DNA from: Arenicellales bacterium
GTDB lineage: Bacteria > Pseudomonadota > Gammaproteobacteria > Arenicellales > Poriferihabitantaceae
Length of the DNA: 64,000 nucleotides
Assembly: GCA_963457535.1 (NCBI GenBank)
Contig: OY734803.1
Coordinates: forward strand, 163,943-227,942
Direction of reading: 5' to 3'
Position 1 is the stretch's first letter. Every line of letters starts with the position of its first letter. Below are positions 895 through 26,952 of the stretch, piece after piece. The position numbers and the translations under genes were made by a program. The notes under the pieces are model-generated. The model was not told the DNA's origin. It did no database searches and saw nothing but the letters and a program-made list of their open reading frames with translations.

Positions 895-2067
895 TCAAGT
901 CCGATAGTCGTCAATCAATGACTTGTCGGATTTGCGCCCCACACAATACTGGCTCACCGGGCACTTGTCACACTTTGGACTCTGATGATTAAAGCAGTAG
1001 TTCCTGCCAATCTCAATCAGCCCGTCATCGAAAGACTCTACCGTGATGTTTTTGCTTTGCTGTTTCCACAAAAGCGCATGTTGAAATCTTTGGATTTCAA
1101 CTTTTCGCGGTGCCCTTGTATGTGACTGCAAATGGTTGACGCAGATGTCTTTGTAGATTTCCTGCAAATCAGACGGCACATTCGCGCTGACCGGCATGCT
1201 GCGCATGTTGGTCACACGAATGTAATCCGTTCCTTTTTTGCCTTGCCCAGGCTGAATGACATTTTGTTTTTTGTACTCGCTCTTGTCCGCAAGTTCGCTC
1301 AAATAGCCGGTTCGCCACAATACGCGGCCGGCATTGGAGTCGAACGGCAGTTCGTAAGAAAACGGGCTCCAGTTGGTCTCATCTTGCCTTCTGGCCAGGC
1401 GAAAAGTTGAGACCATCCATTTGGCAAAAAGATGGCAAGCCTTGACGCCAATTGCCTTGCCGAGCCCGAACTTCTCGTTCCCCTTTAATCCACTGCACAT
1501 TTGTTCAGCGGAAGAATAGCCTTCCAAGTAGTCTGCAAGCGCGGTTGCCGGCTTGTATCCACTCCGGCCGAGCAAGTAAGGAAGCGCCAGCGGAACGCCC
1601 CACCGAAAAATGGCGTAATTCAGCGTCTGCTTGCTGTTGTCCATATAGAGGTTGTATTTTTCCGCGGATGACTGGTTGTCCTCAGCCCACCGTTCCGAGT
1701 GCCGGGACTTTACCTTGTCATGCATCTCCAAAATCTGTTCCACCGAGATGTTGATCTCCTTGAAGAAATCCAACGGCCGGTGGAAAATACGAACCTCCCG
1801 CTGGTAGAGGTCATTTACGACCCCCACCATCATTTCCCTGACACCGTCCAGGTCGGGGCCCTGGTCGAGCACCGCAGTGAGGACCAGCATGCGCAACAGC
1901 AGTTCCCGGCGCGTACATCCGCCGTCGCGCTCGTCCAGCTTAGACACATCAAGGACGTTGCCGTCGAAGAAATGTGCAAACGCGTCAAGCTGATGGGCCG
2001 GGGGCGGCGTCTTGTGGGAGACACCAACCTCCGCAATTGCAAGCGCAAGTTTTTCCAGATGCTCCAT
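895..2067 (-). CDS. HhH-GPD / endonuclease III-like DNA glycosylase superfamily protein with a C-terminal [4Fe-4S] cluster loop
   Basis: 390-aa ORF in a visibly lower-G+C segment. HhH-like GLGKAIGVKACHLFAKW is followed by FDSNAGRVLWRTGYL (Asp of the GPD region). The C-terminal CFNHQSPKCDKCPVSQYC gives a C-X7-C-X2-C-X5-C pattern. Its ATG lies 2 nt after the stop of the upstream methyltransferase. Confidence 0.6.
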   Translation of the reverse strand: MEHLEKLALAIAEVGVSHKTPPPAHQLDAFAHFFDGNVLDVSKLDERDGGCTRRELLLRMLVLTAVLDQGPDLDGVREMMVGVVNDLYQREVRIFHRPLDFFKEINISVEQILEMHDKVKSRHSERWAEDNQSSAEKYNLYMDNSKQTLNYAIFRWGVPLALPYLLGRSGYKPATALADYLEGYSSAEQMCSGLKGNEKFGLGKAIGVKACHLFAKWMVSTFRLARRQDETNWSPFSYELPFDSNAGRVLWRTGYLSELADKSEYKKQNVIQPGQGKKGTDYIRVTNMRSMPVSANVPSDLQEIYKDICVNHLQSHTRAPRKVEIQRFQHALLWKQQSKNITVESFDDGLIEIGRNYCFNHQSPKCDKCPVSQYCVGRKSDKSLIDDYRT

Positions 2068-2069
2068 AG

Positions 2070-2888
2070 TCAGTCAAACAGCGAAGCTGTTGCGCGGCCC
2101 CCGTTTGCGCCGGTGTCGTGGATTCGATAGTTCCCGGAAGTCAGCCGTTCCAGCGCAAAATCGCAGTATTCGCGCACGATTTCAAAACCGATGTAGCGGC
2201 GGTTTTTCATCTTGCTGACCACTGCAACCTGCCCGGATCCCAAAAACGGGTCCAGTACGACATCGCCCTCCCCGCTGGAATAGTCAAGGATTTTTTCAAT
2301 GATCTCCGCGGGAAGCTTGGTCGGCGTTTTTTTGTCGCCCCGCCAATACTCCCGCTTGATTTCCCAGACATCCTCTTTGTCGCGGTAATGCGCCGAGCCG
2401 CCGTTCGCGGCGCGCTCGTCTTTGCCAAACCGCGCATACGGGTGGAAGCACCGCTTGCGGTCATCCTTGCAGAGATACAGGCAGTGGTAGTGCGAAGTAA
2501 CATACTTCCGCCGGGTCGTTACGCCAAACTGGTATTTCCAGATCAGGTGGTTGACCGTGGTCAGTTGGCATTCATCGATCGCGATCAGCAGGTCTTTGAG
2601 ATGATTCCATCCGGAAAAAATATACATACTTCCGGAATCTTTCAAAACCCTGGTCGCCTGGCGCAGCCAGTCAAGGGTGAATGCCTGATAGGCACTCCCC
2701 TCGACTTCGCCGTAACCGGCGATCACCCGGCTGCTTTTTCGGTTGTAGTTTGCCCGGTTTGCTTTGAAGTCAATCGCAAACGGCGGATCAGTGATGACCA
2801 GGTCGACGCATTCCCCGGGCATTGCATGCATCAACTCGATGCAATCCCCGTGCGTTACGGCGTCCAACATTTCGGAAGTTTTTTTCAT
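2070..2888 (-). CDS. DNA methyltransferase, beta-class amino-MTase (N6-adenine or N4-cytosine)
   Basis: Motif IV (ITDPPFAI) precedes motif I (VVLDPFLGSGQVAV), the beta-class order. The start is set at MKKTSEML (ATG 2886-2888). The longer ORF reaching 2969 would overlap the 3' end of the upstream gene. G+C is lower than in the flanks. Confidence 0.85.
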   Translation of the reverse strand: MKKTSEMLDAVTHGDCIELMHAMPGECVDLVITDPPFAIDFKANRANYNRKSSRVIAGYGEVEGSAYQAFTLDWLRQATRVLKDSGSMYIFSGWNHLKDLLIAIDECQLTTVNHLIWKYQFGVTTRRKYVTSHYHCLYLCKDDRKRCFHPYARFGKDERAANGGSAHYRDKEDVWEIKREYWRGDKKTPTKLPAEIIEKILDYSSGEGDVVLDPFLGSGQVAVVSKMKNRRYIGFEIVREYCDFALERLTSGNYRIHDTGANGGRATASLFD

Positions 2889-2908
2889 TGAAGTGTGCCG
2901 CCGGCGCG

Positions 2909-4222
2909 TCAACAATCCAGCGTGTGCTCCACCTCCCAGCGGCTGATGGCGCGGGCGTAGTCGTCCCATTCGTTGCGTTTCAGTTTGCAGTAACTCTCCA
3001 CCAATTCCGCGCCGAGGGCTTCCTTGAGGGCGCGGCTTTTTTCGGTTTTGCGGATCGCGTCCAGCAGGTTCAGCGGGAGTTTTTTCAGGCCGCGGGTTTT
3101 TGCGCCGGGGGCGTACATGTTGGTGTCCAGGCGCTTGCCGGGGTCGCGCTTGTTGGCGATGCCGTCCAGGCCGGCGGCGAGGATGCCGGCCTGCAGCAAA
3201 TAGGGATTGGCCGCGCCGTCCATCAGGCGCAATTCAAAACGGCCGCGGTCGGGGACGCGGATCATGTGGGTGCGGTTGTTGCCGGAATAACTGACCGCGT
3301 TCGGCGACCAAGTCGCGCCGGAGAGCGTGCGCGGCGCGTTGATGCGTTTGTAACTGTTGACGGTCGGATTGAAGAACGAGGCGAGCGCTTCCACGTTGTG
3401 AATGACGCCGCCGAGAAACTCGTAGGCGAGTTTTGACAGGCCGAGTTCGTCCCCGCCGGTTTGGTCTTCAAAAAGATTTTTCGCGCCGCTTTGGTCCCAC
3501 AGCGAGACATGCGCGTGGCAGCCGTTGCCGGTCAGGTGCGAAAACGGTTTGGGCATGAAAGTCGCGCGCAGTCCGTGGTCCTCGGCGATTTGCCGCGTCA
3601 TGTATTTGAAAAACGCGTGGCGGTCGGCGGTGCGCAGGCAGTCGTCGTAGTCCCAGTTCATTTCAAACTGGCCGTTGGCGTCCTCGTGGTCGTTTTGGTA
3701 GGGGCCCCAGTTGAGTTGAATCATCGCGTCGCAAATTTGCGAGACCACATCAAAGCGGCGCATCAGCGCGGACTGGTCGTAGCACGGCTTTTCCTGCGTG
3801 TCGCGCGGGTCGGAAATCGCCGCGCCGTCCGGCTGAATTAAAAAGTATTCGCATTCCACGCCGCTCTTCATGCGGTAGCCGAGTTTTTCGGCGCGCGCAA
3901 TTTGCCGCCGCAGCGCGACCCGCGGCGAGGCCTCCACCGGCGCGCCGTTCATGTGCAAATCGCTCGCCAGCCATGCGACTTCGGGCTTCCACGGCAATTG
4001 CGTCAGACTTTCCGGATCGGGCAGCGCGAACATGTCGGGGTGCGCCGGCGTCATGTCCAGCCACGCGGCGAACCCGGCGAAACCCGCGCCCTCTTCCTGC
4101 ATCTGCGAAATCGCGCGCGCCGGCACCAGTTTGGCGCGCAGCACGCCGAACAAGTCGACGAAACTGATCAGAAAATAGCGGATGTTTTTTTGCTTTGCCT
4201 CTTGGGCGAGATCTTGCGCCAT
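2909..4222 (-). CDS. Glutamine synthetase family protein (GlnA-like gamma-glutamyl ligase)
   Basis: Motifs seen are FVDLFGVLRAKLVP, VECEYFL, NGQFEMNW, TFMPKP...GNGCHAHVSLW, NSYKRI and RFELRLMDGAANPYL. The start is set at MAQDLAQEAK (ATG 4220-4222). Confidence 0.85.
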   Translation of the reverse strand: MAQDLAQEAKQKNIRYFLISFVDLFGVLRAKLVPARAISQMQEEGAGFAGFAAWLDMTPAHPDMFALPDPESLTQLPWKPEVAWLASDLHMNGAPVEASPRVALRRQIARAEKLGYRMKSGVECEYFLIQPDGAAISDPRDTQEKPCYDQSALMRRFDVVSQICDAMIQLNWGPYQNDHEDANGQFEMNWDYDDCLRTADRHAFFKYMTRQIAEDHGLRATFMPKPFSHLTGNGCHAHVSLWDQSGAKNLFEDQTGGDELGLSKLAYEFLGGVIHNVEALASFFNPTVNSYKRINAPRTLSGATWSPNAVSYSGNNRTHMIRVPDRGRFELRLMDGAANPYLLQAGILAAGLDGIANKRDPGKRLDTNMYAPGAKTRGLKKLPLNLLDAIRKTEKSRALKEALGAELVESYCKLKRNEWDDYARAISRWEVEHTLDC

Positions 4223-4751: not shown

Positions 4752-5425
4752 CTTTCTCGATTGCCGGGCATTGCCGCCGCAGCGGAATGTTCGGCGTCGC
4801 CATCGCCACTTCCAGCATCAGCGTCGGCGCGCGCTGTCCGCATGCGCGCGCCGGCGCCGGCGCGGTCGCGAGCCAGAACATCACCGACCCGTCGCTCGGC
4901 GCGGCCGTGCTGGATGAACTGGAAGCCGGGCACGGCGCACAGGACGCGCTGCGGCGCGCGCTCGCGGGCCGCCCGAATTTGGAATACCGCCAGGTTACCG
5001 CGGTGGACCGCCACGGCAAAACCGCCTGCCATTCCGGCGAACGCATGCTGGGCATTCACGCCGCCGCGCCGGGCGGGGACTGCATCGCTGCCGGAAACCT
5101 GCTGGACAATCCGGGAGTGCCGGCCGCGATGACCGCCGATTTCGCGCGGCGCGCCGATGCGCATCTCGCCGAGCGCCTGCTGGCCGCGCTGGAAGCGGGG
5201 CTGGCGGCCGGCGGCGAGCAAGGCGAATTGCATTCCGCCGCGCTGCTGGTCGCGGACGCGCAGCCGTATCCGCTGGTGGATTTGCGCATTGACTGGCGCG
5301 ACCACGCGCCGCTGTCGGCGTTGCGCGAACTCTGGCGGGCTTACGAGCCGCAAATGCAGGACTATCTAACGCGCGCGATCAACCCGGCCGGCGCGCCGTC
5401 GTATGGCGTGCCGGGGGATTTATGA
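4748..5425 (+). CDS. DUF1028 family protein (Ntn-hydrolase fold)
   Basis: The N-terminus MTFSIAGHC...GVAIATSSISVGARCPHARAGAGAVASQN matches the characteristic DUF1028 start. It is translationally coupled to the RidA gene. Confidence 0.75.
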   Translation: MTFSIAGHCRRSGMFGVAIATSSISVGARCPHARAGAGAVASQNITDPSLGAAVLDELEAGHGAQDALRRALAGRPNLEYRQVTAVDRHGKTACHSGERMLGIHAAAPGGDCIAAGNLLDNPGVPAAMTADFARRADAHLAERLLAALEAGLAAGGEQGELHSAALLVADAQPYPLVDLRIDWRDHAPLSALRELWRAYEPQMQDYLTRAINPAGAPSYGVPGDL

Positions 5426-5453
5426 GTTACTCATGCTCCGAGTCGGGAGTTAC

Positions 5454-6134
5454 TCACTTGACATCCGCTTCACCCCAAAGTTTTTCAAAAATGCCCTCAA
5501 ATACTCTTTTCTGAGAGGACAAATTGAAGACAAAGGAAAGTTTCCCACCGATGTTGTTCAGGCTTGTTCCAAAAATATACAAATGCTCCTTGTCGATCAA
5601 AAAGCGATCATGTATATCTTGTTTGCTCTTGGCCAAGGAGATGTGATGCCTTCCAATCACATGCGGTTTTTGACGGTCGATTTTTTTATAGCAATAGACG
5701 ACCTTCAGCGAGTTGATTTTCTGGGGATTCAGCAACATCCGCAACTTACTGTATGCGTTCTCGTCGAAGTAGGGGTCGCACAGTTTGACATCGCCAGACA
5801 CCCCGGCAAAGAGATTTTCCAGAGTTTCGTGAGTGCTTTCTTCGTGGGCCGGATCGATCACAAAAATGCTGTTTTCAAGGTATTCAATACCCTTCTGCAT
5901 AATCGTGAACTTTTGCTGGTCCATAAAGACCCACCCATCTTTTCTGGGAGTCTCTCGCAGGTCCCTCAGCGTATACGACAAGAAACCCTTGATTTCACTC
6001 GTTACCGGTGAAACTTTGCGCGCAAGCAGCCGTTCCCTGATTTCTGCAATGGAGAGCGGGCTGCGACTTTCCTTGAGTATGAGCAGCACTTGCCTTTTTG
6101 CATCCAGCTGGTGGATGTCGATGTTTTCACTCAT
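5454..6134 (-). CDS. Winged-helix DNA-binding domain fused to an HKD-less PLD-fold (MIT_C-like) domain; function unknown
   Basis: Low-G+C ORF and last gene of a four-gene cassette. The N-terminal wHTH-like segment is LLILKESRSPLSIAEIRERL...FTIMQKGIEYLE. The C-terminal segment is VKLCDPYFDE...SLKVVYCYKK...IHDRFLIDKEHLYIFGTSLNNIGGK. Confidence 0.55.
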   Translation of the reverse strand: MSENIDIHQLDAKRQVLLILKESRSPLSIAEIRERLLARKVSPVTSEIKGFLSYTLRDLRETPRKDGWVFMDQQKFTIMQKGIEYLENSIFVIDPAHEESTHETLENLFAGVSGDVKLCDPYFDENAYSKLRMLLNPQKINSLKVVYCYKKIDRQKPHVIGRHHISLAKSKQDIHDRFLIDKEHLYIFGTSLNNIGGKLSFVFNLSSQKRVFEGIFEKLWGEADVK

Positions 6135-6140
6135 GTTTCA

Positions 6141-6614
6141 TTACCGTGCTTTTGACTTAGTGGAACGTTTCTTTCGGCCGGTTTCCTGAGAAGGCAGCAT
6201 GGAAATCATCTGCCGTCCCTTAATTGAAATGCGAAACCCCCGCTTTTCTTTTGGCGGGCGTTCAATGTAGCCATATAAAGGAGAATTGCAGGTGTTACGA
6301 ATGGCCGCACACAACGCGGCCGGCTTCGTGTTTTTTACACCTTCTGGATTGTTGCGGATAAAGTCCACGATTTCGGCGGACGTAGCTGACGGCTTGGTCG
6401 TACCGGTAAGCTCATCCACAACAAGAGCAATGATTTGGTAATCGTTTGCAGGCTTTTTTTCAGCAAGGTAAGATTCCCAGGCCATTGATTCACTTCGGGC
6501 TTCTTGCGGGCGAGCAGACGCATGAGCCCCTTGTATTTGGGCCCCTTGCTCTATTAACAAAGTGCGGACTTCAACCAACAAATCACGCACTTCTTTGAGA
6601 AGAGGGTCACTCAT
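6141..6614 (-). CDS. Hypothetical small protein: N-terminal helix, wHTH-like core, basic tail (paralogue set member C)
   Basis: 157 aa, low G+C, with a 4-nt overlap to the upstream gene. It contains DYQIIALVVDELTG...GFRISIKGRQMISMLP and the tail GRKKRSTKSKAR. Confidence 0.6.
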   Translation of the reverse strand: MSDPLLKEVRDLLVEVRTLLIEQGAQIQGAHASARPQEARSESMAWESYLAEKKPANDYQIIALVVDELTGTTKPSATSAEIVDFIRNNPEGVKNTKPAALCAAIRNTCNSPLYGYIERPPKEKRGFRISIKGRQMISMLPSQETGRKKRSTKSKAR

Positions 6615-7171
6615 TGTTTTTTCTTCTTTTTTGCTTTCTTCTTTGTTGCTGGCGGTTGTTCTGGGAGTTGTTTAAGCATTTTTCGCCCCAAAGGCGTCAT
6701 GTTATACACTCCTTTTCCGACGGAGCGAATATACCGAGACTGTGCCACGGTGTTTGAGATCGCCTTAGTCAGGTTGGTGAGTTGGCCGATATGTTCGTAG
6801 CATTTGTTCTCAAGAAAACTCATGAGAGCATGCTTCTTCACACCAACACTTTCTTCTTGATCGTCTAGCTGCTGCCTTGAAAGATAATCAACAGCGAGAG
6901 CAATCACTTGATAGGTGCCTTGCGGTTGCTTTTGTTCGTACACATCAGACCATTGCTGAGTAGCCGGGCTTGATGCCTTATCAGCAGGTGCGTCGCCAAC
7001 AGGGGACGTGGGCGAAGTGCGCGTGACACCTTTCCCGCGCAATAAGTGTGCAAGGACGACGCCATAGGCAGAAGCAAAAAACTCACGGTCAATCTTGCTT
7101 GCCTTGACCAGATCTTCTGCTTCTTTAATCGTTTTCTGTATGTCTGAGTTGTTCATGTCTTGCTCATTCAC
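6611..7171 (-). CDS. Hypothetical small protein: wHTH-like core, poly-Lys tail (paralogue set member B)
   Basis: 186 aa, low G+C, with 4-nt overlaps on both sides. It contains TYQVIALAVDYLSRQ...GVYNMTPLGRKMLKQLP and the tail KKKAKKKKKQ. Confidence 0.6.
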   Translation of the reverse strand: MNEQDMNNSDIQKTIKEAEDLVKASKIDREFFASAYGVVLAHLLRGKGVTRTSPTSPVGDAPADKASSPATQQWSDVYEQKQPQGTYQVIALAVDYLSRQQLDDQEESVGVKKHALMSFLENKCYEHIGQLTNLTKAISNTVAQSRYIRSVGKGVYNMTPLGRKMLKQLPEQPPATKKKAKKKKKQ

Positions 7172-7563
7172 AGAGTTTCAACATACTCGGCCCCAGTTTT
7201 TGTGAGGTCCCAGTACTTCTTTTTTGATTCACTAGCATCTGATTCTGTGATCCAGCCATTCGCGGCGCACCTTGCGAGACAGGCTGCCACGTTCGTCGGG
7301 ATTTTCTCACGTGCATCACGAAAAATTTTCTTAACCGCTTTTACGCCAATGGGCTCCGAGGAGTTCTGCCGGCGCATGGCGAGAAAATACACCAAGCAAA
7401 TGCATTTGTCGTGCGCGTTGTTGGGAGATTTCTCCAAGAGGAATTCTCGGGGGCTCTGGTCGATTGCAACATGGGGCTGGTTCAGAGAAGGAGTTTTCCC
7501 CTCCAAATTCGCCACCCGTTTTGCAAGCGCATCAAACTCTGATTTAGTTGCATATTGTTGCAT
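7168..7563 (-). CDS. Hypothetical small protein: N-terminal coiled segment plus wHTH-like core (paralogue set member A)
   Basis: 131 aa, first gene of the cassette. An SD-like GAGAGGG lies 4 nt upstream of the ATG. It contains CICLVYFLAMRR...IGVKAVKKIFRDA...YWDLTKTGAEYVE. Confidence 0.6.
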   Translation of the reverse strand: MQQYATKSEFDALAKRVANLEGKTPSLNQPHVAIDQSPREFLLEKSPNNAHDKCICLVYFLAMRRQNSSEPIGVKAVKKIFRDAREKIPTNVAACLARCAANGWITESDASESKKKYWDLTKTGAEYVETL

Positions 7564-7595
7564 TTTACCCTCTCATATATTGGTTGATGAGGAGC

Positions 7596-7623
7596 ATAAT
7601 AATGCTAATTTTTGAAAAGTCAA
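7596..7623 (-). promoter_or_regulatory. Sigma70-like promoter of the four-gene cassette
   Basis: The minus strand reads TTGACT (7618-7623), 16 nt, TATTAT (7596-7601) inside an AT-rich stretch, about 30 nt upstream of the ATG at 7563. Confidence 0.5.
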
Positions 7624-7997
7624 GCGAAAATAACACATTTTAATGATTTATTTTACTGTATGCTTCCAGGGCTTTTTCTGAAAATTAGCAAATAAATCGG
7701 AATTTTACCCTAAATTATCTCCGAATAAGCCTTTTGGTTGCCGTGCTGTCATGCTCTCCAATTCACCCCCGCCTGGTACCAGCAGCATGATATTCGCAAT
7801 AATCACGTTGCGTTTATCGTCCAATTCCGGGGCCGCCAAGCAACGAATCGCCGTAATCGGGAGCGTGCCGGGCGCATGCGAGTCGGCCAAAATAACCGCC
7901 AGCCCGGTCGGTGTCGGCGCGGATGCGCGTTTTTGCAGTCGGATGCGGGCTGGGCGCGTCGCGCTCCCCCGCGCCCCCTCCCCTCCGCTCGTGGCGA

Positions 7998-10900
7998 CTA
8001 CGGCAGCAACGCCGCGATTTTGTTCAGCACGGCGACGCGCGCGGGCGCGCCGGTGATGGAAAGCCCGGCGAAAAGTTCATCGCCGCGCAGGCCGAACAGG
8101 TAGCGCGCGATGAGGAAGCCGTCGGTTTCATCGGAGTCGCCGTCGCCGTCCACATCCAGGGCGTTGGTGGCGACGCCGTCCTGCAGCGAGGATTCGTAGT
8201 CGCGGAAATTGCCGGCGCTTTGTCCGCGAATCAAGGAGGGACCGCGCGAGCCGAGCAAATATCTTGCGGTGATGATGCCGTCGCGGACGGTTGCCGCGGC
8301 CGCGGCGTCTCCATCGGCGGTGTTCAGGTCCAAATCAAAAGTCGCGGTGCGAATGGAGAATTCCTGCTCGGCGGTGTCGCCGGCGTTGTCGGTGACGGTG
8401 TAGGTGATTTGCGCGTCGGTTCCGGCGGCGGGCGTGCCGGAGATTTCGCGGGTCTCTTCGTCAAAGGCGAGTCCGGACGGCAGGCCGCTCACTTCGTAGG
8501 TATAGGGAGTGGAGCCGTGCTCGGCCGCGGGCAAAACCACCGGCGATGCGAGTTGCGTGTCCGCGAGGAAAATCAAATCGGCCTGCGGCGTTGCGAACGC
8601 CAGCACTTCCTGCGGCGTTCCTTCGGCGGAAGTGGACCACGCGCCGGTGCCGGCGCTGTTGACCGCGGCGACTTGCACTGAATAGACGGTGCCGTTGGTG
8701 AGGCCGGGGATCGTGTAAAACGCGTCGGTTCCCCCGGTGGAAACACCATTGGCGTCCACCCATGAAGTAGAGCCGCTTCCCTCGGCCCAGCGAACGCGGT
8801 AGCCGCGCAACACGCCGCCGCCGAGGTCGGCATCGGCCGGCGCGGTCCAGCGCAACATCAATCGTTGGTCGGCCGGCGCAACCGCCAGACCGCTGAGCGC
8901 GGACGCAGGTCCGGCGGTTACCGTCAAATCTATGTCAGCGCGCGCAACGCCGGCGCCGGTTGCCATGCTGTCCTGCGCCGAATAAGTGATGCGAAACAGT
9001 CCGCCCTGCGTCGGCGTGCCGGCGAGGGTGCGCGAAGATTTTGTGAACGCCACCCCGGACGGCAGTGTGTCCCCGCTCAGCGTATAACTGAGCGGCGGAA
9101 AGCCTCCGCGCGCGGCCGGCAGGACAACGCTCTTGGCGGTGTTGTGTTGAAAGGTCAGCGCGGTCGGCGCGGCGGGCGTGAACGTCACCGGCGACACAGT
9201 CTCGGTGGTGAATCTACGCAGAGCCGCTTGGGGCGTCTTGGCGGAATCCACCACCTCATAATTCAGAGTCCATTGCAGGAGGGAGTTGCCGATGGTTTCA
9301 GGCTCAAAATCGCCGGTGAGGGCGCGCGTGTCCGCATCAAAAGAAAAGCCGGCCGGCAGCGGATCATTCCGCGTCATCCCGAATAAGTAGGCGAAGTAAG
9401 AATACGGCGGGAAACCTCCGCTCGCCGCCGGCAAAACGGTCGTTACCGGGGCGCCCGCGTAGGAAAAGATTTTCGCCGGGGCGGGGATGCGCAGCGGTTC
9501 CGGGGTGCGGATGAGCGTGATGCTGTAAGTCTTGGTCGCGCTTCCGTCGGCGGAAGTTACCGCGAAACGGACGGTGAGAGGAATGCCTTGCTGCAAATTC
9601 ACACTGACCTCCGCCCCGCTCGCGAGCGCGGCCGCGGCGGCCGTGCCGGCGGTGACGCGAATGTTCGCGCCGGAATTCTCGGCTGTCGGGCGCAGCGCGA
9701 CGCTCGCGGTCGTCTTCTCCACGGTGATTTCATAGGACAGCGTCTCTTTGTCAAAGGAAAACCCCGGCAGAGTCGTATCCGCGGTCAGACTCTGCAAATC
9801 GGCGTTGTCCTCGCCGACAAAATCAAAGGACGCGCCGGCCCAGACGCTGCCGGCGGTGGTCGCCGCGTCAAACGCGTCGCCGACGGCGATTTCCAGCGCG
9901 GCCACCTGCACATCGTATTTGCCGGGCGTCAAATTGGGAATGGAGACCATGGTGGTGGCGACGCGCGCCGATGCGGTGTAGGTGGAGACGCCGTCCGGTT
10001 TCCAGCGCGTGCGGTAACTCTGCACATTCGCGCCACCCGGCGCGCGCCAGCGCACCTGCAGCGCGCCGGCCGCGGAAGATGCCGAGAAATCGCGCGGCGG
10101 GTCGGGATGCGCCGCCGGCGCATCGAGGAAGCCGCTGCTCTCCACCCATGCGCTCTGCCCGGCCTCGCTGACCGAGGCGACCGCAAATTTCAAGGCCGCG
10201 GTCAAACGCGGCGAGTTCCAAGTCGCATCGGCGCTGCCGGTGGCGACGCCCGACGCGCCGCCGGTGCCGTCCCATGCCCCGGTATTCACGGAAGTCCAGC
10301 GCACCCGGTATTCGGTGATGGGCGCGCCGGCGACCGCGGCCGGCACATTCCAATCCAGGGAAAATGCGCTTTTTCCGCGGATTACGACAATATTCGCGGG
10401 CCGATTCGGCAGAATTTGGCGGGTCGCGACCACGCGGTAGGTCTTTTGCGCGGAGCCGTCGTCGGCGGTCACCACGATGGTGAAGATGATGCTCGCGCCG
10501 ACATCCAGCGCGGTCGGCGTACTTGCCGTGCCGCTGGTTCCGGCGGCCGGCGTCCCGCTGTCCACTTGCAGCGTGAAAGACGCGTGTTCGTCGTTCAGCG
10601 TCGCGGTGATGCCGACTTCGGTGCTGGCGTTCGGGGTAACCGAGGTGTAGTCGGTGGTGTCCGCGTCAAACGCCGGCGACAAATCGCCGGAGGACATTTC
10701 CAGCGCGGAGAGGGTCGCGTCAATATTCGGCAGCGCAGTCGCTTGCGCCGCGCTCCACGCGCCGGCGCCGACGCTGTTGACCGCGGCCGCCGCGACATCG
10801 TAGGCGGATTTTTCCAGACCGGAGATTGTATAACTGCGCGCCGATGCGGCGACGCTTTCGCCGCAATCGTTGTCGGTGGCGGTGTCGCCGTCATTGCATT

Positions 10901-25269: not shown

Positions 25270-25544
25270 ATGAAATTTTGGCACAGGGAGCAAGCCGCGC
25301 GGCCGGCGCGGATGTTTTTCGCCAGAGCGCGCGGGAGTGGATCGGCTTTGCGCGCGATGACGCGGGGAAGTTGTGGATAGCCGGCTGGAAACAAACCGAC
25401 GACGGCAAGATGTATCTCAACACAATCCATCGCGCAAAGCCGGCGCAATTGCAACAGGCGGAGAAAAAATGGCGGAGGGTGAAAAATGAGCGCCTGGGGG
25501 TGGGCAAATCTCCCCTCATGGCTCAAGGCCGGTTATGCCGCTGA
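25270..25544 (+). pseudogene. Deletion and frameshift remnant of the small divergent ORF (copy 3)
   Basis: ATG 25270 with the conserved MKFW start runs into a stop at 25378-25380. The C-terminal homology (ADVFRQSAREWIGFARDDAGKLWIAGWKQTDDGKMYLNTIHRAKPAQL) sits in another frame. About 330 bp present in copy 2 are missing. Confidence 0.65.
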
Positions 25545-25562
25545 CTCAAGCGCTCGCGAATT

Positions 25563-25590
25563 ATCTTACCGCCCTGCTCCGCCGTGTCAA
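25563..25590 (-). promoter_or_regulatory. Sigma70-like promoter facing P3
   Basis: The minus strand reads CCGCTTGACA (25585-25590), 16 nt, TAAGAT (25563-25568). Confidence 0.4.
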
Positions 25591-25787
25591 GCGGATTGTG
25601 GAAAAAAGTTCGCCGGTTTTTGCGGTTTTTTGGGGAATTTTCCCTTGTGCGCCGCTTTTTGCGGCGGGATAAAGCGTGGTTTGTGCAACCTCAATATCCG
25701 AGGGTATGCTATTATCCGTGCCCATCTTCTCCCGCCCCAGTTGTGCGGGAATTGCGGCCAATGAAAACCGCGTTCGCGGAGGAAAAA

Positions 25788-26639
25788 ATGCAGCCACTTG
25801 ACGACCAGATAAAAAACGAACTGAACCGGCGCATCGCCAAGATTGGGGAAAACCTTGGCGACATGGATGTGATGTCCATTATTGGCGCCATTGAGTATGG
25901 CGTAGACCATGGCGTCCGAGATGCGCTTGAATTGAAAGCGCGAAAAAAACCCGGAATTGCAATTGTTCTGGAAACCTTGGGCGGCCTCATCGATGTGGTC
26001 GAGCGTATTGTCCAAACAATCCGGCATTTCTATACGGAAGTCGTGGTGATTGTTCCCAACACCGCGATGTCTGCCGGGACCTTGCTGGCGCTGAGCGCCG
26101 ACCGGGTACTGATGGACTACTTTTCGCGGCTGGGCCCGATTGATCCGCAAATTTCCAAAGACGGCAAACTTGTCCCGGCGCTTTCTTACCTGAACCAGTA
26201 TGAAAAACTGAACAAGAAAGCGGCCAGCGGCGAACTGACCACCGCGGAATACGCAATGCTCAAACAACTTGACCTGGGAGAGTTGTACCAGTTCGAGCGG
26301 GCAAAGGAATTGTCGGTGGAGTTGCTGGTCAAGTGGCTGTCCCAGTATAAGTTCAAGAACTGGAAGCGAACTCAAAGCGCCAAGCAGAAAGTCAGCGAAG
26401 AAATGAAGCAGGATCGCGCTGATAAAATTGCCCGAATGCTGAGCGATCCGGAGCGGTGGCATTCTCACGGGCGCGGCATTGACATCTTCACGCTGCGAAA
26501 AGAGTTACATTTGCAGATCGAAGATTTCTCGGAGAAAGAGGAACTGCGTGAGAGCATCAGCCATTACTTTGCTCTGTTGGCGAATTATGTGGCCCGCCAG
26601 CAGATGACCATCTTTGTCCACACTGAGGAGTTCTTTTAA
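25788..26639 (+). CDS. SDH-family (serine dehydrogenase proteinase) Clp-fold serine protease
   Basis: VLETLGGLIDVVERIVQTIRHF...VVVIVPNTAMSAGTLLALSADRVLM matches the SDH_sah/ClpP-fold nucleophile region. A GGAGG SD lies 6 nt before ATG 25788. G+C is lower than in the flanks. Confidence 0.7.
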   Translation: MQPLDDQIKNELNRRIAKIGENLGDMDVMSIIGAIEYGVDHGVRDALELKARKKPGIAIVLETLGGLIDVVERIVQTIRHFYTEVVVIVPNTAMSAGTLLALSADRVLMDYFSRLGPIDPQISKDGKLVPALSYLNQYEKLNKKAASGELTTAEYAMLKQLDLGELYQFERAKELSVELLVKWLSQYKFKNWKRTQSAKQKVSEEMKQDRADKIARMLSDPERWHSHGRGIDIFTLRKELHLQIEDFSEKEELRESISHYFALLANYVARQQMTIFVHTEEFF

Positions 26640-26640
26640 C

Positions 26641-26841
26641 ATGACAAAAGCATCGCACAAGCATTCCCCGCTCTTTGATGCACATCTGAAGAGCAACCCA
26701 AAAGTATCCAAATCTGTCGTCGAGCAATACCAGATGCTTGAAAAGGAACTGCACCGGCTCGGGGTGGATACGCGCGCGCGGTACACTCTGTCGCATCCCT
26801 TTGACCGAGTGGCTTATCGCCACCGCCCAAAGGCGAAGTAA
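26641..26841 (+). CDS. Small hypothetical protein (66 aa) coupled to the SDH protease
   Basis: The ATG lies 1 nt after the protease stop. The composition is the same lower G+C. No recognisable motif was found. Confidence 0.4.
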   Translation: MTKASHKHSPLFDAHLKSNPKVSKSVVEQYQMLEKELHRLGVDTRARYTLSHPFDRVAYRHRPKAK

Positions 26842-26952
26842 CCGGGGAAAACAAGATCTGCCGGAGAGCGGACTTCACGCCCAACACATCCCCTGTTAGT
26901 CGACGGCGCGAATGGACCGGGTTTTGACCGCAACGCGGCCCCGGCAGCCTCC

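Follow-up and report, generated by a model that had tools for sequence, protein, structure and literature searches.

A low-G+C operon of winged-helix proteins and a MIT_C-type PLD-fold protein in an Arenicellales bacterium: a candidate restriction-modification-associated defence module

The window analysed here is a 64,000-nucleotide stretch of the genome of an Arenicellales bacterium (GTDB lineage Bacteria; Pseudomonadota; Gammaproteobacteria; Arenicellales; Poriferihabitantaceae), taken from assembly GCA_963457535.1, contig OY734803.1, positions 163,943 to 227,942 of the forward strand. Near its beginning lies a compact cassette of four genes, A to D, all on the minus strand and all intact open reading frames (ORFs). 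Gene A (7563-7168) encodes 131 aa, gene B (7171-6611) 186 aa, gene C (6614-6141) 157 aa, and gene D (6134-5454) 226 aa. Genes B and C overlap by 4 nt in an ATGA (6611-6614), and C and D are separated by a gap of 6 nt (6135-6140). A preliminary description of this DNA had given both junctions correctly, together with an overlap of A and B at 7168-7171, which holds only if GTG 7171 is the start of B. The alternative start, ATG 7156, lies 15 nt downstream of the GTG, leaves a 12-nt gap between A and B, and shortens B to 181 aa; it was chosen by the gene caller on an identical metagenomic contig (L005). The four same-strand ORFs had been described as one operon with its own promoter and Shine-Dalgarno sequence, and reading of the ORFs and junctions leads to the same view. 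The sigma-70-like promoter TTGACT-16-TATTAT (7596..7623, minus strand) matches at 10 of 12 positions and stands 33 nt upstream of the A start codon, and the Shine-Dalgarno sequence GAGAGGG (7568..7574, minus strand) ends 4 nt before the ATG at 7563. This promoter is the sole sigma-70-like match in 5200-8100, where shuffled sequence averages 2.4 matches, so that only its position is meaningful. A TATAAT-like box, read by eye, is present upstream of A in most related loci that have non-coding DNA there.

The segment is much more AT-rich than its surroundings, as had been noted. The G+C content of the cassette is 0.476, compared with 0.638 for the whole window and 0.65-0.67 for the flanks, and the profile runs at 0.42-0.50 over 5400-7800 and at 0.63-0.73 on both sides. 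Identical copies of the cassette occur in four sponge-metagenome samples, and identical short contigs in the sponge metagenomes of PRJEB9378, which points to a bacterium associated with sponges as the source of the window. Comparison of two related loci (L002 and L003, described below) gives ratios of nonsynonymous to synonymous substitution (dN/dS) of 0.20 for D, 0.38 for A, and 0.13 for the methyltransferase gene Mod that accompanies the cassette there. The segment is a discrete operon, foreign in composition and with a promoter of its own, on which purifying selection acts. Integrase and attachment (att) repeats were said to be missing, and this stands after repeat and tRNA searches: there is no integrase, no tRNA lies within 40 kb of the cassette, and no flanking att-like or target-site repeats surround it. 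Only a 10-nt duplication occurs at one end. This direct repeat, GAGTTACTCA, is found twice, 23 nt apart, at 5424-5456, where the stop of D meets the stop of the convergent DUF1028 gene; nothing matches it at the opposite end of the island. An Rfam scan gave no relevant family near the cassette.

Gene A (7168..7563, minus strand) begins with an amphipathic helix, after which comes a MarR-like winged helix-turn-helix (wHTH). Its AlphaFold2 (AF2) model, built on the alignment of the A family (42 clusters), has a mean predicted local distance difference test score (pLDDT) of 84 and an H-H-beta-H-H-beta-hairpin-H topology with helices at the N- and C-terminus. In Foldseek searches of the PDB, the best 50 matches are all MarR/MepR/HosA/PadR-type repressors, and in sequence-profile searches of the PDB the A family matches only MarR, MecI, and RosR. 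The MarR-like winged-helix fold of gene A is thus predicted with confidence. The resemblance to MepR, MarR, HosA, and PadR-like repressors extends to the terminal helices, which form the dimer interface in MarR. In contrast to these repressors, gene A has no significant Pfam score for MarR or PadR (the PadR match, E 0.048, is below the cut-off), and no palindromic operator is conserved between the loci. A perfect 10-nt inverted repeat, TGCTAATTTT / AAAATTAGCA, lies at 7603..7690 (no strand), with one arm within the promoter spacer. It is a candidate operator of the operon, a speculative role that has the MarR-like fold of gene A as its only basis. Neither the sequence of this repeat nor any common operator or end motif was found across the related loci compared.

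Genes B (6611..7171, minus strand) and C (6141..6614, minus strand) are built alike: an amphipathic helix at the N-terminus is followed by a low-complexity linker, by a conserved C-terminal domain, and by a tail of Lys/Arg. The conserved domain of C appears to be winged-helix-like. B, which not every locus has, is a paralogue of C that carries an additional helical segment at its N-terminus and ends in a poly-Lys tail; the Lys/Arg tails that had been ascribed to two of the small proteins are those of B and C. In BLASTP, B matches C-family proteins with E-values down to 4e-9, which is backed by the family alignments, and in the DNA one 33-nt stretch is 76 % identical between the two genes. Judged by these alignments, B and C are true paralogues. 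The relation to A is more distant. In hhalign, the B/C family aligns with the A family over the whole wHTH region at 54 % probability (P 1.3e-4), and this alignment sets YQ[IV]IAL.V against CICLVYFL, as the preliminary description proposed. Paralogy of A to B and C is not demonstrable at BLAST level. The suggestion that all three small proteins are diverged paralogues therefore holds for B and C, and for A it is reduced to a weak profile relation. The wing motifs YWDLTKTG, VYNMTPLG, FRISIKG, and FTIMQKG, which had been read as one pattern common to the four proteins, are all present and fall at equivalent positions in the profile-profile alignments. The B/C profile has only spurious matches in the PDB, to designed helical repeat proteins; gene C has no Pfam, PDB, or PADLOC match, and Pfam, NCBIfam, PADLOC, and PHROGs hold nothing for A-C. 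A winged helix in B and C is weakly indicated by the profile alignment.

Gene D combines two domains. The N-terminal domain (residues 1-88; 5871..6134, minus strand) aligns with the winged helix of A in hhalign of the A family against the D superfamily (73 % probability, P 3e-5), and has a weak Pfam match to WH_Rok. In the AF2 model of D, which is based on 8 sequences, this domain has a pLDDT below 50, compared with 85-95 for the C-terminal domain, and the profile match makes it a probable winged helix. The claim of a winged helix in all four products is hence supported structurally only for A, by profiles for the N-domain of D, and more weakly by profiles for B and C. The C-terminal domain (residues 89-226 and the stop; 5454..5870, minus strand) is the putative effector and has a predicted PLD-superfamily fold of the MIT_C/'HDR' type. 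In Foldseek, the best match of D is TrmBL2, which has the same wHTH and PLD-like architecture, and the C-domain matches TrmBL2, PLD3/4, Zucchini, FAM83A, vaccinia F13, SauUSI, and BfiI with a probability of ~1.0. In BFVD, the top match is a Pithovirus PLD-like protein. A profile of 81 D-family sequences finds the MIT_C chains of MITD1 in the PDB (4a5z and 2ymb, E 2e-3), with CDPY aligned on EDPY and HDRY on HDRE. D alone and an 8-sequence D profile have no sequence match in the PDB, and D alone has no MIT_C score in Pfam, so that its membership of the MIT_C subclass rests on the larger profile. AlphaFold modelling with Foldseek, the check put forward in the preliminary description, was applied to A and D, and with the MITD1 profile match it agrees with that description's view of the D C-domain as a PLD-like fold of the MIT_C type without the HKD motif.

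The 81 relatives of D include 11 that match PLDc_2 and 4 that match MIT_C in Pfam. In PADLOC, all 81 match PDC-S05, 13 match NsnC, 5 match DrmC, and 3 match MkoC. Residues D120, H175, and R177 are invariant in the 81-member alignment, and P121, D176, G189, S191, G196, and K198 are at least 90 % conserved. The Asp, His-Asp-Arg, Ser, and Lys that are invariant or nearly so across these relatives look like an active-site set. Two features define the subclass, an acidic residue that is conserved following beta2 and an HDR motif ahead of beta5 (PMC12065111), and both are present in D. In contrast, the canonical catalytic motif HxK(x)4D(x)6G[ST]xN does not occur. The motif of D is H175-D-R177-F-L-I-D181...G189-T-S191-L-N193, an HxR with altered spacing, and HxR...G[TA]SxN is similar to the canonical form but non-canonical. 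The models and alignments thus give the C-domain of D a PLD fold with a conserved site, of the MIT_C/'HDR' type. The close family of D is very rare, with 8 clusters among 5.8 billion proteins, and an exhaustive profile search of the D superfamily gives 763 representative clusters, mostly of 235-265 aa and with both domains.

A-(B)-C-D synteny, which the preliminary description had proposed to look for in other genomes, occurs in eight loci besides the window, and in every case where the available sequence is long enough. Several of these loci derive from sponge and marine metagenomes that are identical or related, and B is missing from some. D is 46-55 % identical in the eight loci, and orthologues of C occur in nine loci. 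B is intact in the window, L001, L009, L011, and L012, is a fragment in L021, and is absent from L002, L003, L004, and L018. Two further genes accompany the cassette in most of these loci. Mod, an N6_N4 methyltransferase, has its best score against models of type III Mod (1.4e-60), and Res combines a ResIII helicase with a PD...EVK nuclease motif at its C-terminus. The complete six-gene form, Res, A-B-C-D, and Mod, is found in L001 and in L009, which is identical to L010 and L013 and belongs to a metagenome-assembled genome (MAG) of Ca. Spongiihabitans thiooxidans (LFLB01000038). L004 has Res, A-C-D, and Mod; L002 has DUF488, A-C-D, a protease, and then Mod; L003 has A, a truncated C, and D, with Mod downstream. 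In L011, A-B-C-D is followed by an insertion sequence (IS) element and BglII restriction-modification genes. L012 has Res, DUF488, two further ORFs, A-B-C, a gap, and a Mod fragment, and in L021 the order A, B fragment, C, and D is followed by Fic, a second D-like gene, Mod, and Res. The available sequence of L003, L011, and L021 contains no gene upstream of the cassette. The type III-like Mod therefore follows the cassette in the same orientation in L001, L002, L003, L004, L009, L012, and L021, starting 0-7 nt after the D stop in L001, L003, and L004, and Res is present in L001, L004, L009, L012, and L021. The G+C content of the cassette is below that of the flanks in all nine loci measured, and below that of Res and Mod wherever these are present; in L009 it is 0.356, compared with 0.470 for Res and 0.454 for Mod. 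Other defence-type neighbours of cassette loci are bacHORMA, Fic, DUF488 (PDC-M19A), DpnI, a reverse transcriptase, PIN, and BglII restriction-modification genes. On gene order, the cassette usually forms the inside of a Res-ABCD-Mod locus of six genes, a type seen mainly in metagenomes of sponges and marine symbionts. The copy in the window is an orphan that neither Res nor Mod accompanies; tblastn finds no Res in the window, and the only methyltransferase found in the window (299 aa, 2070-2969) is 2.5 kb from the cassette.

Two of these loci carry traces of rearrangement. At 2750-2900 of L002, a remnant of the 5' end of Mod follows right after the D stop and resembles the Mod start of L003; next come the protease gene and a complete Mod, so that the protease was apparently inserted with duplication of the Mod start. 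At 7589-7945 of L012, a 118-aa chimeric ORF joins the first 12 residues of Mod (MLQWVGKKPLDV) to the PD-(D/E)xK nuclease domain from the C-terminus of Res. D is missing from L012 and its Mod is fragmented, which together with the chimera suggests that these loci rearrange and decay.

Beyond the syntenic loci, A-like and D-like proteins occur in other combinations. In L018, a member of a protein family designated X precedes A and C, which are followed by an unrelated 252-aa protein beside DpnI and a reverse transcriptase. In L020, on a conjugative element, an A-like gene and a small gene precede a CHAT protease, and on a Haloarcula plasmid A lies within a cluster of four wHTH proteins, including a double-wHTH protein, without D. 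L014, on Woesearchaeota MAG contig CAZAIT010000026 (70-3164), encodes a methyltransferase of the DPPW (MT-A70-like) kind, three small X proteins that are paralogues of one another, and a 216-aa D-like protein with a winged helix and MIT_C. A 111-aa protein encoded between these appears A-like by manual reading, with an N-terminal coiled coil and a winged-helix-like segment; the hidden Markov model of the A family is negative for it. The X family precedes A in L018 and in L019, a Chloroflexota MAG locus, as well. The gene after A-family proteins therefore varies between D, the CHAT protease (L020), the 252-aa protein (L018), and the double-wHTH protein (Haloarcula), and a swappable terminal gene is typical of modular conflict systems. 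The D C-domain is also found in effector-type positions elsewhere, namely in the model matches to NsnC, DrmC, and MkoC and at the end of a 1641-aa protein on the Pseudomonas sp. B22129 chromosome (L015, 3504-8429). The latter has an N-terminal P-loop (GESGIGATT) and long helical repeats, and ends in a CDPYF...HDRW...GTSFNSIG domain of the D C-domain class. It is possibly a STAND-type defence protein that uses this domain.

The frequent company of Res and Mod raises the question of whether A-D are obligate accessory subunits of a type III-like enzyme, serving its loading, its specificity, or the control of its establishment. The window copy would then be a recently orphaned remnant without function. 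In favour of this are the N6_N4 Mod downstream in 7 of the 9 cassette-type loci with A and partners, Res in 5 of the 9, the translational coupling of D and Mod, and the existence of decayed loci (L012 with its chimeric ORF, L003 with its truncated C). The methyltransferases of newer methylation-based systems also need accessory loaders (MANTIS, bioRxiv 10.64898/2026.09.23.753747). The window cassette, however, has four intact ORFs and retains every invariant residue, the promoter, and the Shine-Dalgarno sequence, and no remnant of Res or Mod flanks it. Within one and the same locus, the cassette differs sharply in G+C content from Res and Mod, a sign that the module is separable, and L018, L019, and L014, the last with a different methyltransferase, are without this restriction-modification pair. 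The accessory-subunit explanation is accordingly considered quite improbable.

The match of D to TrmBL2 points to the main alternative, in which the cassette is a DNA-binding regulatory or chromatin-like module without a nuclease. D would be a TrmB/TrmBL2-like one-component regulator, its MIT_C-like domain would oligomerise or bind a phosphorylated small ligand, and A-D would control Res and Mod or coat AT-rich DNA. TrmBL2 is non-enzymatic, the MIT_C of MITD1 has no known catalysis, all four proteins resemble DNA binders, the tails of B and C are basic, and the Haloarcula cluster consists only of wHTH proteins. The translational coupling of Mod to D is furthermore reminiscent of restriction-modification controller genes. 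D is like TrmB and TrmBL2 in the order of its domains, a wHTH followed by a PLD-like alpha/beta domain. In contrast, D matches none of the TrmB Pfam models, TrmBL2 is without the Asp/HDR/Ser/Lys set, and the genomic context is different. Four genes are excessive for a controller, and the cassette is kept in the window, L018, and L019, where there is no Res or Mod to regulate. The invariant Asp/His/Arg/Ser/Lys set of D looks catalytic, the same domain ends the giant P-loop protein of L015 and replaces nuclease domains in NsnC, and a CHAT protease is among the alternative terminal genes. A purely regulatory role is therefore regarded as unlikely.

The preliminary description recognised no described system of this composition, and profile, structure, and literature searches have given the same outcome; in the literature searched by full text, which falls short of the whole literature, no cassette of the A-B-C-D type is described. 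No described multi-gene system matches the cassette, and the domain class of D is already known, at the level of prediction only, as PDC-S05 and as PB-PLD1/MIT_C. The closest likeness is to PADLOC PDC-S05. The C-terminal ~120 residues of D match both PDC-S05 models (E 1e-8; best relative 1e-24), aligned only at profile positions ~160-300 of ~300, and the N-terminal half differs. PDC-S05 is a single gene, whereas D is the fourth gene of a conserved operon that often includes Res and Mod. Full PDC-S05 membership of D is rejected on account of the coverage, which is limited to the C-domain, and the multi-gene organisation. One PDC-S05 representative is reported to be anti-phage against T7, T5, and T4, with up to 1000-fold protection against T7 and T5 (bioRxiv 10.1101/2024.09.26.614923).

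The PB-PLD1/MIT_C class is a predicted nuclease in Menshen NsnC and in BrxL C-termini (PMC12065111). D is like the MIT_C of MITD1 (PF16565) and the PB-PLD1 of NsnC and BrxL in its PLD-like fold, in the acidic residue after beta2, and in the HDR motif before beta5. The domain partners differ: MIT in MITD1, ParB and ATPase components in Menshen, a Lon-like AAA+ in BrxL, and a winged helix in D. With Menshen (NsnABC) only the effector-type domain is common, as PADLOC gives no NsnA or NsnB match for A, B, or C, and there are no BREX genes at the cassette. MANTIS (Gao_RL), BREX, DISARM, and Menshen are rejected as whole systems, because their required ATPase and partner genes are absent; no AAA+ ATPase occurs in the cassette or the related loci. 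MANTIS comprises an AAA+ ATPase, a co-regulator, a methyltransferase, and a helicase-nuclease (bioRxiv 10.64898/2026.09.23.753747). The PLD and winged-helix type IV restriction enzymes of the Aba4572I/CbaI type have an N-terminal catalytic PLD domain with canonical residues and a C-terminal winged helix that reads 6mA. This identity is rejected for D, in which the order is reversed (winged helix, then PLD-like domain) and HDR stands in place of the canonical motif. As in type III restriction-modification, the relatives have a ResIII helicase-nuclease and a type III-like Mod, here on either side of the cassette, and their gene order is res-ABCD-mod, compared with mod-res in known systems. The window cassette itself is rejected as a type III system, since Res and an adjacent Mod, which are found in L001, L004, L009, and L012, are absent. 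An extra effector nested in a restriction-modification operon has a precedent in PrrC of EcoprrI. The cassette proteins show no similarity to PrrC or RloC.

Mobile-element databases give little. PHROGs holds no significant match for the cassette proteins, and scans of IMG/VR (with D and A) and a tblastn search of INPHARED found no phage or viral contig with A or D, for which reason a prophage repressor or other phage module is rejected. The profile and structure searches likewise place the genes in no known family set. A plasmid-borne module is rejected, because PLSDB has no match for D and a single remote A-like match, on the Haloarcula plasmid, whose cluster is without D. The results bear on the toxin-antitoxin or addiction module suggested in the preliminary description. 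D would be a toxic nuclease restrained by A, B, or C, and the module would stabilise the island or its neighbours. A small DNA-binding protein first in a tightly overlapping operon, an effector-like last gene, and a foreign composition are in line with such a module, and it is compatible with all data. Three antitoxin-like genes are atypical, however, no similarity to any toxin-antitoxin family is found in Pfam, NCBIfam, or PADLOC, and D has no plasmid match. An addiction module is thus held to be very improbable in its own right, although it overlaps with a defence function and the two are inseparable by sequence alone.

Taken together, the evidence argues for a horizontally acquired, separately transcribed conflict- or defence-type module with D as effector, and this reading is given a probability of roughly 0.45. 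The role of D as effector is suggested by the occurrence of its domain elsewhere, its conserved residues, and the variable terminal gene. Gene A would form a MarR-like winged-helix dimer at the promoter region, where it would repress or gate the operon. Together with A and D, B and C would make up a scaffold that binds nucleic acid; their winged-helix-like domains and basic tails would serve for binding, and their N-terminal helices for association. The winged helix of D would tether the MIT_C/'HDR'-type PLD-fold domain to DNA, and the C-domain, as a homodimer with a single active site, would cleave nucleic acid or process it in some other way. In the fuller loci, the cassette is co-transcribed with Mod and would act as an accessory or second restriction layer. 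The window carries the cassette alone, and this copy would therefore act autonomously or be a functional orphan. In this scheme we infer DNA binding by B, C, and the N-domain of D, complex formation, catalysis by D, a role in defence, and autoregulation by A.

Several points weigh against a defence module with D as effector. The motif of D is HxR and not the catalytic HxK, and its best structural match, TrmBL2, is a non-enzymatic chromatin protein of the same architecture. The MIT_C of human MITD1 is a membrane-binding, non-catalytic PLD fold, and the enzymatic role of HDR/MIT_C domains is a published hypothesis only (PMC12065111). The assayed PDC-S05 protein is reported to carry a RhuM domain (bioRxiv 10.1101/2024.09.26.614923), and at most its C-domain is common with D. 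The folds of B, C, and the N-domain of D are without a confident model. In genomic terms, tblastn found no remnant of Res or Mod beside the window cassette, L019 has X-A-D alone among metabolic genes with no defence neighbours, and the relatedness of the source metagenomes makes the synteny counts overstate the independence of the loci. The function of the cassette is deduced throughout, and is probably that of an undescribed accessory anti-phage or anti-plasmid module.

A broader form of the defence reading is that A-(B)-C-D, with or without Res and Mod, makes up an undescribed multi-component immune system, in which MarR-like and related winged-helix proteins would recognise or mark the DNA of invaders and license a PLD phosphodiesterase of the HDR (MIT_C-like) type. 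This is a tentative and rather doubtful proposal. More speculative still is the idea that the cassette is mobilised by D through a covalent phospho-histidine-DNA intermediate, which would explain both the foreign G+C content in every genome and the absence of a recombinase.

If functional, the cassette would be a new multi-gene architecture among restriction-modification-associated defences, and a small, tractable model for deciding whether the widespread HDR/MIT_C PLD-like domain is an enzyme. Catalysis by D, if true, would be the first enzymatic function for the MIT_C class that is common to BrxL, Menshen NsnC variants, and human MITD1. The orphan cassette would represent a defence module carried apart from its usual Res and Mod pair, which bears on the assembly and disassembly of defence islands.

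Elsewhere in the window, a second low-G+C patch (0.49-0.56) is found at 895-2969 (minus strand), 2.5 kb from the cassette and beyond the GS-like and DUF1028 genes. Its 299-aa N6_N4 DNA methyltransferase (2070-2969, minus strand; Pfam 1.6e-38) is directly followed by a 390-aa ORF (895-2067), which has only weak matches, to the EndoIII/MutY 4Fe-4S loop (Pfam 0.0025; PDB MutY 0.07) and to CcdA. The two genes may form a type II restriction-modification pair of their own, in which restriction is conceivably due to a glycosylase-type component. A run of five giant ORFs (1573-1854 aa) with many repeated Fn3/cadherin-like modules occupies 7998-36506 (minus strand); the first was read as a translation and the others were taken from the ORF list. 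Between giant genes, a patch at 25350-26850 has its own low G+C content (0.50-0.55, compared with ~0.65) and encodes an SDH/NfeD-type ClpP-like serine protease. The protease ORF spans 25584-26639 (plus strand), and its homologous part, 25788-26636, is 64 % identical over 283 aa to the L002 gene between D and Mod. It looks like another small mobile or defence-type insertion common to these genomes.

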